Source of the DNA: Minisyncoccota bacterium
GTDB taxonomy: Bacteria > Patescibacteriota > Minisyncoccia > UBA6257 > JAVHQB01
Assembly (NCBI GenBank): GCA_035404205.1
Contig: DAONGQ010000004.1
Location: 1 to 53,191 of the forward strand
Direction: 5' to 3'
Length of the DNA: 53,191 nucleotides
Both the position numbers and the translations under genes were made by a program. Numbering within the stretch: position 1 is the stretch's first letter; each line of letters starts with the position of its first letter. Positions 207-36,101 of this stretch are shown here, in pieces. Under the pieces are notes generated by a model. The model worked only from the letters and a program-made list of their open reading frames with translations, did no database searches and was not told where the DNA came from.

Positions 207-277
207 CTATAGTTTATAAAGTTTATCAAGTTTTTAAAGTTTATAAAGTAGAAGATAGAACAAAAAAATAAAAATTT

Positions 278-6485: not shown

Positions 6486-6600
6486 TAGCTATATAAGTTC
6501 TTAAAGTTTATAAAGTTCATAAAGCAAGAATTTGGAATAGGGAATCTGGAGAAAGGCTACATTCATTCTAAATTCCAATTTCTAAATTCCACATTCACAT

Positions 6601-30996: not shown

Positions 30997-31399
30997 ACCC
31001 GAGACTTCTTTTACAAGTCTTTTAGAATTAGTGGGGGAAAGCGCCAACTTGAAACATCGGGGCTTATTGCCCCATGCCGATGTTACTCTTTTAGGGGTAA
31101 ACGAATCTTGCGGTGATAAAATCATTTTACAATTAAAACTAGATAAAGATGGTCATATCAAGCAGGCGCTATTTAATGGGGAGAGTTGCAGTTTATCAGC
31201 TTTGGGGGCGGAAACGATGTGTGCCTTAATAGAGAAAGGGAAAATTCCTAAACCGATAGAAGAGAAAGTATTCCTTAAATCTTTAAATTTTAATTTTAGT
31301 CCTGTAAGAAAAAAATGCGCTTATTTAGTTTGGAAAACTTGGCAAAATTATGTTTCTTCAAAATTTAAACCTGCTGTTCAAAAGAAAAGCAAAAAATAG
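30983..31399 (+). CDS. SufU/IscU-like Fe-S scaffold / sulfurtransferase
   Basis: N.SCGD and G.SCS.S.A Cys motifs in NifU-N-like order. 138 aa, overlapping sufS by 14 nt. Confidence 0.65.
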   Translation: MKKNKPETSFTSLLELVGESANLKHRGLLPHADVTLLGVNESCGDKIILQLKLDKDGHIKQALFNGESCSLSALGAETMCALIEKGKIPKPIEEKVFLKSLNFNFSPVRKKCAYLVWKTWQNYVSSKFKPAVQKKSKK

Positions 31400-32594
31400 C
31401 GTTCCTCCTTGGATAGATCTTGATGCTGCTTCCACTACCCCTATTTACGAGGAGGTATTGCGAGCTATGGGGCCATATTATAGTGAGATCTATTTTAACC
31501 CTAACTCTGTTCACGCTGCTGGGCAATTAGCTGCGCGCGCTCTAACCTATAATCGGCAAATTGTGGCTGATTATTTTGCCGTTAGGAGCCAAGAAATACT
31601 TTTTGCCAGTTCGGCTACCGAGGCGAATAATTGGATTATAGAAAGTTGCTCTCGCATAAAACTGCCGACACAGAAAAAGCCTCATATTATTTATAGCGCC
31701 ATAGAACATGATTCCGTCATTGCTCCTATCTTAAGATTAAAAAACGAAGGCGTTATTACTACCACTATCTTACCAGTTGGTCAAAATGGCCTGGTGGATA
31801 TTGGTACTTTAGAGAAAGCCCTTACTAAAGAAACGGTATTGGTCTCTATTATGGCTGTCAATAACGAAATAGGGTCCCTAGAACCGCTTCTCTCTATAGG
31901 TCAATCTTTGGCAAAATTTAAAAACCAGCAGAAAACTCTTTATCCTTATTTCCATAGCGATGCTGCCCAAGGTTTGAATTATTTCCATTGGCCTGATTTA
32001 AAATATTTAGACTGCCTTACTTTCTCTGGGCACAAAATTAATGGCCCCAAGGGCATTGGGGGATTAGCTATTTTTAATTCCCAGATGTTAAAAACTATCG
32101 TTCCTCTTATAGTAGGAGGGCATCAAGAATTTAATTTAAGAGCAGGCACGGAAAACTTGCCAGCTATTATCGGTCTAGCTAAGGCACTAGAAATTCTTAA
32201 GCAAAACTCAGCATCTGACCATGAACGTTTGTTTCGATTACGCTCCCTTTTTTGGGAGACCTTGCAAGAGTATCATTCTCACATTCTTTTGAATGGAGAT
32301 TTGAATGCCTCTGTTCCCTCAATAATTAATTGTTATTTTCCTGGCATTTTAGCCTCGGACATGGTGGCTGGCTTAAGTGAAAAAGGTGTATTAGCTAGCC
32401 CAGGCGCTGCTTGTTCTGCTAGTTTAGGGACGCCTTCCCATGTTATCTATGCCCTTTATCACGATAAAGAAAGGGCTCAGGAATCAGTGCGGTTTAGCTT
32501 TGGACGTTCTCTAGACTATGACAATGTCAAGCATGCGGCTCAACTAACTGCCGGACTTTATACCCAATTACTCTCACTCAAAAATACGCTTTAA
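31350..32594 (+). CDS. Second cysteine desulfurase (NifS/IscS-like, group I)
   Basis: LDAASTTP, SA.EH.SV, FSGHKI.GPKG.G.L, L..G.HQE...RAGTEN, S.G.ACS. Overlaps the previous gene by 50 nt. Confidence 0.8.
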   Translation: MFLQNLNLLFKRKAKNSVPPWIDLDAASTTPIYEEVLRAMGPYYSEIYFNPNSVHAAGQLAARALTYNRQIVADYFAVRSQEILFASSATEANNWIIESCSRIKLPTQKKPHIIYSAIEHDSVIAPILRLKNEGVITTTILPVGQNGLVDIGTLEKALTKETVLVSIMAVNNEIGSLEPLLSIGQSLAKFKNQQKTLYPYFHSDAAQGLNYFHWPDLKYLDCLTFSGHKINGPKGIGGLAIFNSQMLKTIVPLIVGGHQEFNLRAGTENLPAIIGLAKALEILKQNSASDHERLFRLRSLFWETLQEYHSHILLNGDLNASVPSIINCYFPGILASDMVAGLSEKGVLASPGAACSASLGTPSHVIYALYHDKERAQESVRFSFGRSLDYDNVKHAAQLTAGLYTQLLSLKNTL

Positions 32595-32611
32595 GTTCAT
32601 ATAAAGAAGTT

Positions 32612-32640
32612 TTGGCACTATATTTTTCTTGTGCTATAAT
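32612..32640 (+). promoter_or_regulatory. Sigma70-type promoter (TTGGCA-N17-TATAAT with TGc extended -10), first of three -10 copies
   Basis: TTGGCA at 32612-32617 and TATAAT at 32635-32640. The -10 is repeated at 32678-32683 and 32721-32726. Confidence 0.55.
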
Positions 32641-32746
32641 CTGTCCGAAGGACAGAATATATCAGGTAGCAGCCTGCTATAATCTGTCCGAAGGACAGAA
32701 TATATCAGGTAGCAGCCTGCTATAATCTGTCCGAAGGACAGAATAT
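32632..32746 (+). repeat. 43-bp perfect tandem repeat, 2.7 copies
   Basis: The unit TGCTATAATCTGTCCGAAGGACAGAATATATCAGGTAGCAGCC starts at 32632, 32675 and 32718. The third copy is identical for 29 nt. Each copy has an extended -10 and the palindrome CTGTCC-GAA-GGACAG. Confidence 0.95.
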
Positions 32747-32796
32747 TAGAATTCGGAATACTCTCGTAACGTAACAGGATTAAGAAAACTATCACT

Positions 32797-35412
32797 ATGC
32801 CATCTTTAGATAAATTTACACTAAAAGCTCAATCTAGTTTAGAAAGAGCCCAACAAATTGCCATAGAGAACTCTCATTTAGAAATACGAGCAGTTCACAT
32901 TCTCTTGGGCTTGCTCAAAGAAGGCGATACTTTAATTCAGCCCATGTTAGAAATGGAGGGGGTGAATGTAGATAGTCTTATTCGCAGGGCGGAAGAAGAG
33001 CTTAAAAAAATTATGCCCAGTCCAAGCGCCAAAAGCGCCAATTTTGGACAGCTCTATTTAACCCCAGAAGTAATTCAAATTTTTGAGCGAGCTCACGCTC
33101 TTCTCAAAGAGCTGGGGGACGAATATATCGCTTGCGAACACCTCTTTATTGCTATTAGCTTAACAGATAATAGTGCCAATGATATCTTGAAATCATTGGG
33201 GTTAATTTCGGCTAAGCTCTTGGAGGACCTTAAAATCACTCGTAATGGCGCAACGGTTAACAATGATAACCCTGAAGCTAGTTTCAAAGCCTTAGAAAAA
33301 TACTCGACTGATTTAACCGAAATGGCTCGCAAAAATTTGTTAGACCCTGTGATTGGAAGAGAAGCAGAGCTGAGAAGAATTATGCAAGTCATTTCTCGTC
33401 GCACTAAAAATAACCCCGTCTTAATAGGTGAACCGGGCGTGGGAAAGACTGCTATTGTGGAGGCTTTAGCTCAAAGAATTGTCAAAAATGAAGTTCCCGA
33501 ATCCTTAAAGAACAAGAGAGTTGTTTCATTGGACCTGGGCAGCATGATTGCTGGCACCAAATTTAGAGGAGAGTTTGAGGAGAGGCTAAAAGCAGTCCTA
33601 AATGAAATTAAAAAATTACAGGGGCAAGTCATTGTTTTTATTGATGAGCTTCAAGTTATTGTTGGCGCCGGCGGAGCAGAAGGATCGATTGATGCTGCGA
33701 CTCTTTTAAAGCCAGTACTCTCTCGGGGAGAGTTCAAGACGATTGGGGCAACCACTTTTGATGATTACAAAAATTCTATAGAGAAAGATCAGGCTTTAGC
33801 TCGCCGTTTTCAACCAGTGATAGTAGAAGAGCCGACGGCCGAGGATACTATTGCTATTTTAGAAGGGTTGAAAGAAAAATATGAAACTTACCATGGATTA
33901 AAAATTACTCCCGAAGCGATACGCGCAGCGGTGGATTTATCTGTACGTTATATCACCGACCGTTTCTTGCCAGATAAAGCCATCGACCTTATTGATGAAG
34001 CCGCCTCCTCGTTGCGTTTAGAAATTGATAGCACTCCCCAAAGTCTGGAAAATGCCGAAAAAGAATTGCGCCGCCTAGAAATAGACAGAGCCGCTGGCAA
34101 TAAAGAGGACAAAACTTTGAAAAATAAAATAGAGACATATCGTAAAGAGGTGTCGAAAATGAAAAATGATTGGCAGAAAGAAAGAGAAACGGTTGAAAAA
34201 ATCAATGTTTTAAGTAGGGAGATTAGCATGGCTAAAGAAGAAGTGGAAACTTACGAACGAGAGGGCCAGTTAGAAAAAGTAGGCAAGATTTTATATGGTG
34301 ATATTCCTCAGAAGAATAAAGAGCTGCAGGAATTGCAAGCTAAATTAAACACATTGCGTAAACGTGGCAAACATTACTTGAAAGAGGAGATAAGCTCTGA
34401 AAATATCGCTAGCATTGTCTCAAAATGGACAGGTATTCCAGTAACGAAAATGCTTGAGAATGAGTCTCAGAAGCTTATGCATATGGAGAATATTCTAGGA
34501 AACCGGGTGATTGGACAAACTGAAGCTGTCAGCGCGGTATCACGGGCTATTCGGCGTGGTCGTTCTGGAATTACGGAGGAAAACAAACCCATCGGCTCCT
34601 TTATGTTTTTAGGTCCTACCGGCGTAGGCAAAACAGAGCTAGCGCGTTCTCTAGCAGAATACATGTTTAACGACGAAAAATCTATTCTACGCTTTGATAT
34701 GTCTGAGTATATGGAGAAACATACGGTTGCCAGATTGATTGGTTCACCACCAGGATATGTTGGTTATGATGAGGGTGGACAACTTACCGAAAAAGTGAAA
34801 CATAGACCCTATAGTCTTATTCTTTTCGATGAGGTGGAGAAAGCGCATCCTGATGTTTTTAATATCTTGCTTCAAGTTTTGGACGATGGCAGGCTCACCG
34901 ATGGCAAAGGACGAACCGTGAATTTCAAAAATACCATTATTATTATGACCTCTAACGCTGGCAGCGAGTATATTACTGCTCAGAGTCAGTTTGGTTTTTC
35001 TGATAGTGAAAAAAAGAAAGCGCCCTCTCTTAGCGAATATAAGGAAAAGGTGCTAGGGGCGTTAAAAGAGACATTTCGACCAGAGTTTCTCAATCGTTTA
35101 GATGAAATTGTGGTTTTTAACCCTCTAACTTTGGAAGATATCCGTAAGATAGTAGATTTGCAAATTGAGCAAATCAACAAACGTTTAAGGCAAAAAAATA
35201 TTTCCATTACTCTTGATAGCAAGGCCAAAGACTATATTGCCGAACATGGGTATGACCCAGAATACGGTGCTCGACCAATTAAACGTTTTATCGAGCGTCA
35301 TATTTTAGATTCCTTGGCGGATAAAATTGTTAGCGGTGTCGCCAGGAATAATTCCGATTGGAAAGTAAGTGTTGAGGGGAACGATTTAAAGCTAACGCCT
35401 CTAAAAAAATAA
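32797..35412 (+). CDS. clpB: ATP-dependent chaperone/disaggregase ClpB
   Basis: Clp N domain, two AAA+ modules ([18 protein letters not shown]), long coiled-coil middle domain. 871 aa. Confidence 0.95.
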
Positions 35413-35417
35413 CTAAA

Positions 35418-36101
35418 ATGAAAAAGGGGGCCATCTTTTTTGTTGTTTTGTATGCTTTTCTTTTGCTTGTAGGTTTATTTTTTAGTTGGCCGCTTTGGCT
35501 CAGTATCGGTTTGGCTGTTTTAGTTTTGGCTGTTTGGAAATTATTAAGCGGTTTAGCCTGGCACAATACCTACTTTTTGTTTTTTATTGCTTTTCTTTCT
35601 CTAGCCCTAAGCAGCATTGTCAACAAAACAACTGGTTTAATTATTTTCTTGGGGCTTTATATTGCTTTTCTTGGGCAGCTTGATAAAAAAGATTATCCGC
35701 TTTTTTCTTATCAAGCGCGCTTAAAAATATTTTTTTGGCTTCTGGCTTTTACGTGGTTTTTTTGGGTTTATAGTTTAAATCAATATTTGTCCTTCGGAGT
35801 TAGTTTGATTCTTCTGCTTAGCGGTTTTAGATTGCTTTTGCAAATAGCCAATAATGAAACAGCTTGTTTGGGGGACAATCTATTGCAAGACTTAATCTAC
35901 TTATTTGCGATTGTTCAGTTTGCTTGGTTAGCGGTACTTTTGCCGTTAAACCCCTTTGGCCAAGCTCTTTTTCTTATGCTCTGGAGTCTTTACTTTAACG
36001 AAAGGTTTAGGGAAGACCTTTCAGAACAATCTCTTAAAACTATTCTTGCGCAAACATTGGTTATTATTGGTGTCTCTTTAGGTATTTTGATGCTGAAGTA
36101 A
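35418..36101 (+). CDS. Hypothetical polytopic membrane protein
   Basis: Six or more hydrophobic helices and no motif. Confidence 0.4.
   Translation: MKKGAIFFVVLYAFLLLVGLFFSWPLWLSIGLAVLVLAVWKLLSGLAWHNTYFLFFIAFLSLALSSIVNKTTGLIIFLGLYIAFLGQLDKKDYPLFSYQARLKIFFWLLAFTWFFWVYSLNQYLSFGVSLILLLSGFRLLLQIANNETACLGDNLLQDLIYLFAIVQFAWLAVLLPLNPFGQALFLMLWSLYFNERFREDLSEQSLKTILAQTLVIIGVSLGILMLK

Follow-up and report, generated by a model that had tools for sequence, protein, structure and literature searches.

A tandem array of candidate promoter units upstream of clpB in a Minisyncoccota bacterium

In the genome of an uncultured Minisyncoccota bacterium, clpB, the gene for the heat-shock disaggregase ClpB, is preceded by a perfect tandem repeat in which each unit holds an extended -10 box followed at once by a palindrome. 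The locus raises the question of what such an array multiplies: promoters, operators, RNA structures, or nothing of consequence to the cell. The DNA analysed, called the window below, is the whole contig DAONGQ010000004.1, with a length of 53,191 nucleotides (nt), from a 535-kb genome that is 97% complete. The answer favoured here, to which a probability of roughly 55% is given, is that the array is a minisatellite of whole core-promoter units that tunes clpB. Multiplication of the promoter looks like a regulator-free setting of clpB expression and not like the site of a new stress regulator.

The repeat unit

The array covers 2.7 copies of a 43-bp unit with the consensus TGCTATAATCTGTCCGAAGGACAGAATATATCAGGTAGCAGCC, at 100% matches, without indels and with a score of 230 in Tandem Repeats Finder. 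Direct reading of the sequence agrees, also with the unit starts given in a preliminary description that had been made from the sequence alone (Table 1). A perfect repeat of 115 bp is far beyond chance. Each unit begins with the extended -10 box TGCTATAAT, and the three boxes lie 162, 119 and 76 nt upstream of the clpB ATG. As the preliminary description had it, the palindrome CTGTCC-GAA-GGACAG stands directly 3' of the box in every unit, which pattern search also found, and a -35 hexamer is present for the first copy alone. This first promoter (P1) reads TTGGCA-17 nt-TATAAT with a TG extension and reaches 11 of 12 matches in the promoter scan. With two or more -10 elements in series upstream of one gene, the locus has the form of a tandem sigma-70 promoter.

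The palindrome extends to 33 nt, TGCTATAATCTGTCC-GAA-GGACAGAATATATCA, with 13 of 15 arm positions paired, and the -10 box is therefore part of its left arm. This near-palindrome recurs at 32675-32707, and its copy in unit 3 (32718-32746) stops after AATAT. The unit junctions are palindromic as well (TAGCAG-C-CTGCTA, with a second copy at 32710-32722), so that the whole array is self-complementary; the junction palindrome is restricted to this species and absent in its relatives. Transcription from unit 1 would start at about 32647-32649, in the loop of the palindrome. The rest of the clpB leader aligns with the tail that follows the last unit in sister species, contains the decayed relic of an ancestral ATG-proximal promoter, and has no Shine-Dalgarno sequence.

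That the assembler made the repeat, or its copy number, is extremely improbable. The genome is a scaffolded, short-read metagenome-assembled genome (MAG), and other intergenic minisatellites in it abut 100-N scaffold gaps (C5:24660, C8:4141, C9:3903; C numbers denote contigs of this genome). Against this, at least seven independent same-species assemblies from other samples carry two or three units at the same place, sister species hold diverged units that no assembler could invent, and the array is shorter than usual read lengths.

Unit number and -10 boxes among relatives

About 20 independent intergenic versions were compared. They stand on metagenome contigs found either by a pattern scan with the clpB 5' end or because they encode ClpB of the five closest 90%-identity clusters. 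The source samples of the contigs were JGI 3300025858, 3300025867, 3300010352 and 3300009692, ENA ERZ27257423, ERZ27257449 and ERZ795026, and SRR30949868 and SRR35528378. The clpB contig of one genome of the genus (G003) stops inside the gene, and its upstream region lies outside the comparison. Within the species (identical or near-identical ClpB of 871 amino acids (aa); period 43 bp), two units are found on L122, L126 and L127, and three in the present genome (G000) and on L120, L123, L128 and L129; three further contigs (L116, L124, L125) end at or beside the array. At 93% ClpB identity (period 45 bp), L118 has a single unit, L137 and L138 have two units plus a dead third box (TGTAAT), and L119 has four units in the order A-B-A'-B' plus a dead fifth. 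Three clearly diverged units with a period of 48-56 bp occur at 90% identity (L006, L139/L140, L142/L143), the third adjoining the ATG and lacking a hairpin, and L141, at 85%, has one hairpin unit plus a proximal promoter, with a period of 55 bp. The outgroup at 86% identity (L117, L144) has no repeat: an intrinsic terminator after the upstream gene is followed by a single TGTTATAAT about 27 nt from the ATG, and there is no G+C-rich hairpin. This arrangement of terminator and single promoter is likely the ancestral state.

Repeat number thus differs among close strains, being two or three within the species and one, two or four in the 93% sister species, as expected of a variable-number tandem repeat (VNTR). 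The earlier suggestion of a recent, copy-number-variable expansion is borne out by these counts, and also by the finding that three identical units occur in the present assembly only. The units of the species otherwise carry mosaic single-nucleotide polymorphisms, with CTGTCC or TTGTCC, a GAA or GCA loop, and GGACAG, GGACAA or GGGCAG. The lone unit of L118 is a hybrid that joins the left part of unit A to the tail of unit B, a structure typical of deletion by recombination. A search for MutS (PF00488) gave nothing in any of the four genomes of the genus, and RecA is present; frequent slippage, and recombination between repeats that have diverged, would agree with this gene content.

Of all parts of the unit, the -10 box changes least. 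Between paralogous units within one genome, TGNTATAAT is identical at 8-9 of 9 positions, N alone varying, while the remainder is 40-65% identical. Because the extended -10 box stays so constant while the rest diverges, each unit is probably a working promoter rather than a passenger; the selection on each -10 element that this implies is seen among the sister species, in their older paralogous units. In the 93% and 100% clusters, decay has altered the ATG-proximal promoter from TATAAT to TGTAAC or GTAACG, and the upstream units therefore appear to have taken over its function. Elsewhere in this genome, TGNTATAAT serves as a promoter, as tRNA genes and many others have it directly upstream. 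The preliminary description had proposed three phased start sites or operator sites on the same face of the helix. Several tandem starts are plausible, TGNTATAAT being kept in old units, but the period is 43, 45, 48-56 or 55 bp in different relatives, and since it is not conserved, helical phasing is not a feature of the array. A minus-strand promoter of divergent orientation (mirror TGATATATT) was considered and rejected; its TG is lost in B-type units (CGATATATT), so it is not conserved.

Variation of this kind is also what a neutral minisatellite would display, in which the palindrome stalls replication and provokes slippage or template switching, and repeats, for want of mismatch repair, come and go without effect on fitness. 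The absence of MutS agrees with it, as do the free variation of copy number, within the species too, and the many other intergenic tandem repeats of the genome, several of which border scaffold gaps; template switching, moreover, can create and repair hairpins (PMC8794818). Neutrality is nevertheless improbable as a full account: arrays of at least two units persist across four ClpB clusters at 85-93% protein identity, old units keep a perfect extended -10 box amid decaying flanks, and the ancestral ATG-proximal promoter has decayed just where upstream units are relied on. Very small genomes are, besides, generally taken to lose non-functional DNA.

The promoter-unit reading gains from a second perfect repeat of the same kind in this genome, 62 bp in 2.0 copies on the minus strand of contig C3 (C3:38939-39063, corresponding to L034:3940-4064). 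It lies upstream of a 29-aa Lys-rich open reading frame (ORF), which is followed by ORFs of 110 and 841 aa (putative hpf and secA). The unit holds TGTTATAAT and then at once the inverted repeat TAAATT-N11-AATTTA, which extends with its left arm into the -10 box and has a covarying stem (TAAATT/AATTTA vs. TAAAAT/ATTTTA). Arrays of this type have one unit in G003 and two in the present genome; G002 has two or more, spanning a scaffold gap, and G001 has six or more. With the same architecture and a variable number at a second locus, the phenomenon is not peculiar to clpB.

The palindrome and heat-shock control

The second constant part of the clpB unit is the ability of the sequence after the -10 box to pair. 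Across 15 distinct units, 94.5% of cells are paired; sliding the partner by 1-3 columns lowers this to 31-57%. Three pairs have changed on both sides. Relatives share the stem in the variants CTGTCC/GGACAG, TTGTCC/GGACAA and CTGCCT/GGGCAG, and distant units have other stems at the same place (TTGCC-AGTA-GGCAA, CTTTC-GGAC-GAAAG, CTGTC-CGAG-GACAG, TCCTT-CTGAAA-AAGGA). Pairing ability, and not stem sequence, is conserved directly after the -10 box. Folded as 33 nt, unit 1 has an energy of -11.3 kcal/mol (z -4.8) as RNA and of -6.4 kcal/mol (z -5.3) as DNA; the common 33-nt variants range from -8.6 to -12 kcal/mol (z -3.6 to -5.2) as RNA and from -5.8 to -7.8 kcal/mol as DNA, far from the values of shuffled sequences, and some units of the 90% cluster fold weakly. 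The stem-loop most likely acts as a nucleic-acid structure and not as a sequence-specific operator.

An operator had been proposed in the preliminary description, and the heat-shock genes of this genome supply the background against which it can be judged. A 14-kb heat-shock supercluster on contig C5 comprises an hrcA-like gene, grpE, dnaK, dnaJ, groES/EL, lemA, htpX and hsp20. The HrcA-like protein (C5:30131-30940) matches TIGR00331 at E = 3.7e-33, which is below the curated cut-off, over residues 33-123. Copies of the controlling inverted repeat of chaperone expression (CIRCE), TTAGCACTC-N9-GAGTGCTAA, are found at three promoters of the supercluster (Table 1), and a genome-wide search allowing up to four mismatches gave none upstream of clpB. 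Judged by these motifs, HrcA/CIRCE controls hrcA-grpE-dnaK, groES and hsp20, and not clpB. In several other families of the order (L008, L011, L021, L024, L025), clpB is preceded by CIRCE.

A CIRCE-like relic is discernible at 32612-32639, where TTGGCACTA and TTGTGCTAT are separated by 8 nt, with 8 of 9 matches in the left half and 6 of 9 in the right. It begins at the P1 -35 hexamer, the GCAC-GTGC spacing of its core is 12 nt where 13 would be expected, and sister species have it in a still more decayed form; for these reasons it is probably non-functional. It may be the remnant of a former control of clpB by HrcA.

Other known heat-shock regulators were sought with the same outcome, in line with the earlier statement that CIRCE and the CtsR box both differ from the palindrome. 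CtsR (PF05848) gave matches in control genomes and none in the four genomes of the genus, and the region 32600-32796 has no GTCAAA heptad repeat of the CtsR box, (A/G)GTCAAA-NAN-(A/G)GTCAAA. Proteins of the MerR family, including HspR (PF13411), are likewise absent from the four genomes, and the HspR-associated inverted repeat (HAIR) motif CTTGAGT-N7-ACTCAAG is absent from the clpB upstream region. A CIRCE, CtsR or HspR site was rejected as the identity of the palindrome on these grounds.

There remains the case of a dimeric repressor of some unrecognised stress response, which would bind the start-site palindrome and, through three copies, repress clpB in a cooperative or phased manner. The palindrome overlaps the -10 box and +1, the classical position for a repressor; at the other heat-shock genes of this genome, a very strong promoter is combined with the operator CIRCE; a replacement control would be sensible for a clpB that lacks CIRCE here and has it in other families of the order; and the outer CTG...CAG is fairly constant among units. 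The distribution of the palindrome makes such an operator quite unlikely all the same. The exact 15-mer occurs nowhere else in the 535-kb genome, its three occurrences all lying in the clpB array, and in the same genome the degenerate form YTGYCY-N3-RGRCAR is found, besides clpB, only in the rplU terminator and at one coding site, hence at no other gene start and at no other stress gene. Any regulator would therefore serve one gene in the whole genome. No regulator gene adjoins the clpB locus, and the CtsR and MerR/HspR families are missing. The stem sequence is replaced outright in relatives with its pairing kept, and arm length and loop size vary, as does the unit spacing, from 43 to 56 bp.

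Conserved pairing could instead serve at the level of RNA, where hairpins in a long P1 leader, or in read-through RNA from the upstream suf genes, would be sites of RNase III processing, mRNA stabilisers or temperature-sensitive structures, and the extra -10 boxes would be passengers in an AU-rich stem. This is possible, though unlikely. Every unit folds as RNA in the energy range given above; the predicted P1 transcript folds back on itself over about 83 nt in a single imperfect hairpin, whose stem has about 40 bp (-52.8 kcal/mol for the whole 184-nt fold, z -4.8); the two-sided changes include G·U intermediates on the + strand; and no terminator precedes clpB in the lineages with an array, whereas the outgroup has one. 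On the other hand, the predicted start lies inside the hairpin, and hence the hairpin cannot form in the transcript of its own unit, which for the single-unit L118 leaves no hairpin in the transcript from its own promoter. The 5' RNA hairpin of the preliminary description accordingly fails for a unit's own transcript and could still form in transcripts from units upstream. At a distance of 50-150 nt from the AUG, and unpaired with it, the hairpins are no classical thermometer, and the long hairpin is confined to three-unit strains of this species. About five + strand G·U events were counted vs. three C·A events (author's count); being about equally frequent, they give no clear preference for either strand. 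Finally, an RNA element leaves the perfect TG and TATAAT of diverged units unexplained.

Three further identities were tried for the hairpin and discarded. The clpB leader region has no Rfam match better than E = 0.24, and an RNA thermometer or other known cis-regulatory RNA was rejected on this ground and because the predicted hairpins do not pair with the start region. An intrinsic terminator is excluded by the sequence after the stem, AAUAUAUCAGG, which has no U-tract; true terminators of this genome carry a six-T run, for example after rplU. A mobile-element or phage origin was rejected in view of the lack of dispersed copies in the genome and of any match in a viral contig collection. Nor do the promoters of this genome generally have a hairpin after TATAAT, as such hairpins are not enriched genome-wide (23 observed vs. 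21.5 expected).

Several observations weigh against reading the array as a series of promoters. The units of this species are too young for their intact -10 boxes to inform on selection, and TGNTATAAT is not over-represented genome-wide (54 observed vs. 50 expected). Units 2 and 3 are without a -35 hexamer, while the clearest promoters of the genome (hrcA, groES, hsp20) have a perfect one, and the start sites at these two units are predictions from sequence and conservation. Several units or strains tolerate C·A mismatches in the stem. The unit counts all derive from short-read assemblies, which can miscount tandem repeats. Compensatory changes, moreover, can arise by template switching during replication without selection (PMC8794818), which weakens the case for hairpin conservation.

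With these points taken into account, a minisatellite of core promoters is still the preferred explanation, and its history and mode of action may be outlined as follows. In the lineage of this genome, the ancestral clpB promoter region would have been duplicated upstream, and the duplicated units would also have gained, immediately 3' of the -10 box, a short stem-loop rich in G+C. The array would since expand, contract and homogenise through slippage and unequal recombination between units, and the three identical units seen here would reflect a recent conversion or expansion. Every unit would be a sigma-70-type extended -10 promoter, most likely a working one, and P1 would have its -35 hexamer besides. 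The number of units would set how often RNA polymerase initiates upstream of clpB, and the array would be kept since several initiating promoters raise clpB transcription; initiation at every unit and an effect of copy number on the ClpB level are inferred here. The stem-loop may have a role in the leaders of transcripts begun at upstream units or in suf read-through RNA, may act as a DNA structure at the region of melting and start-site selection, or may be the mutational cause of the duplications.

A more ambitious version, held to be rather improbable, would make the extended -10 box and the start-site hairpin a self-contained, protein-free module. The hairpin, as DNA or as RNA, would render initiation or mRNA fate dependent on temperature or supercoiling, and copy number would be an evolvable gain control. 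If true, the module, including the putative hpf-secA array, would represent a general control of stress genes in ultra-small bacteria of the Candidate Phyla Radiation (CPR), which have few transcription factors and no mismatch repair.

Genomic setting and known systems

The array lies between clpB and the last gene of the suf/Fe-S cluster, for a cysteine desulfurase (Table 1), and a scan of 32300-33000 found no terminator-like site between the two genes. Six nt past the clpB stop begins a gene for a 227-aa predicted membrane protein (35418-36101) without a Pfam or NCBIfam match; it keeps its place after clpB in five of the five ClpB clusters and is therefore probably co-transcribed with clpB. 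Close ClpB homologues carry the labels Candidatus Paceibacterota, Parcubacteria or Minisyncoccia, and among species-representative genomes ClpB has distant matches only, at no more than 54% identity.

Table 1. Positions of features at the clpB locus (window coordinates) and of CIRCE copies on contig C5
Feature	Position	Strand	Basis or remark
IscS/NifS-like cysteine desulfurase gene, last of suf/Fe-S cluster	31350..32594	+	Pfam Aminotran_5; NCBIfam NifS/IscS-type
-35 hexamer TTGGCA of first promoter (P1)	32612..32617	+	promoter scan
Tandem array, 2.7 perfect 43-bp units	32632..32746	+	Tandem Repeats Finder
Extended -10 box TGCTATAAT, unit 1	32632..32640	+	sequence, promoter scan
Extended 33-nt near-palindrome, unit 1	32632..32664	+	sequence, fold
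Core palindrome CTGTCC-GAA-GGACAG, unit 1	32641..32655	+	exact pattern search
Junction palindrome TAGCAG-C-CTGCTA, units 1/2	32667..32679	+	sequence
Extended -10 box TGCTATAAT, unit 2, without -35	32675..32683	+	sequence
Core palindrome, unit 2	32684..32698	+	exact pattern search
Extended -10 box TGCTATAAT, unit 3, without -35	32718..32726	+	sequence
Core palindrome, unit 3	32727..32741	+	exact pattern search
Rest of clpB leader	32747..32796	+	comparison with L138, L139, L117, L144
clpB, 871 aa	32797..35412	+	TIGR03346, 1144 bits
CIRCE, hrcA-like gene (then grpE, dnaK)	C5:30067-30093		overlaps perfect TTGACA-17-TATAAT
CIRCE, groES-groEL	C5:38043-38069		overlaps perfect TTGACA-17-TATAAT
CIRCE, hsp20	C5:43686-43712		overlaps perfect TTGACA-17-TATAAT

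Some further features of this genome and its relatives were noted in passing. The genome has two or three sigma factors: RpoD and a small extracytoplasmic-function (ECF)-like sigma factor are common to all four genomes of the genus, and a 198-aa open frame at C7:5801-6004, with a strong match to sigma-70 region 2 (78 bits), occurs in the present genome and not in the other three. Arrays of 9-10-nt words (ACTTTATAA, ACTTTACAA or AGTTTATAA) stand just before start codons that have no Shine-Dalgarno sequence; on C5 they are upstream of the ATG of dnaK (31638), of a 403-aa ORF (33732) and of groEL (38495), and further examples are at window positions 211-249 and 6495-6524. At C2:43-197, close to the contig end and immediately upstream of an intact tRNA gene, a perfect tandem repeat of 71 bp in 2.2 copies is built from the 5' half of a tRNA gene, into whose D-arm region a G+C-rich hairpin is inserted. 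In family f7 of the same order, the clpB homologues on L020 and L028 (from G009 and G039) have three in-frame TGA codons each, which suggests that this family, unlike the present genus, reads TGA as a sense codon.

The interest of the locus lies in the organisms that carry it. The CPR/Patescibacteria have tiny genomes and very few transcription factors, and we know of no cultured models for gene regulation among them. The clpB array suggests a regulator-free adjustment of expression, in which whole core promoters are multiplied and their number is varied by repeat instability. The relatives offer a natural series of one, two, three and four units, together with stem variants that keep or break pairing. 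For users of MAGs the locus has a practical side, as such arrays break or mis-size short-read assemblies at the promoters of important genes. No described equivalent of the clpB promoter array was found in the literature, and the nearest known systems each share a part of its features.

Tandem promoters are the closest of these in form. In the genome-reduced Mollicutes, Mycoplasma gallisepticum among them, tandem -10 boxes have been proposed to stand in for a single optimal promoter equipped with -35 and extended elements, and rrn P1/P2 and the tandem promoters of Chlamydia are cited as further examples (PMC5138195). The clpB array resembles them in having sigma-70-type -10 elements in series before one gene of a regulator-poor organism. 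It differs in that its promoters all go back to one 43-56-bp unit, of which they are exact or recent copies, and are not unrelated neighbouring boxes, in that unit number varies between strains, and in that each unit has a hairpin-forming palindrome; the clpB start sites are, in addition, predicted ones.

Classical contingency loci have repeats of 1-8 nt, which shift the -35/-10 spacing or the reading frame and so switch a gene on or off. Promoter VNTRs and contingency loci share with clpB a strain-variable repeat number that arises through slippage or unequal recombination, without mismatch repair. At clpB, in contrast, the repeated unit is a whole core promoter, and a graded dosage would be expected.

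Control by CIRCE and HrcA includes clpB in Mollicutes (PMC5138195). The likeness consists of an inverted repeat at or beside a strong sigma-70 promoter of a chaperone gene. The clpB palindrome, however, is dissimilar to TTAGCACTC-N9-GAGTGCTAA, having a contiguous stem and a 3-nt loop, being unconserved, and being unique in the genome; at clpB only the decayed relic (TTGGCACTA ... GTGCTAT) overlaps P1.

Repetitive extragenic palindromic (REP) elements occur in many copies scattered through a genome. Like these and the bacterial interspersed mosaic elements (BIMEs), the clpB array has tandem, imperfect palindromes between co-directional genes that can fold in the transcript, but its unit is found at one locus only and carries a promoter.

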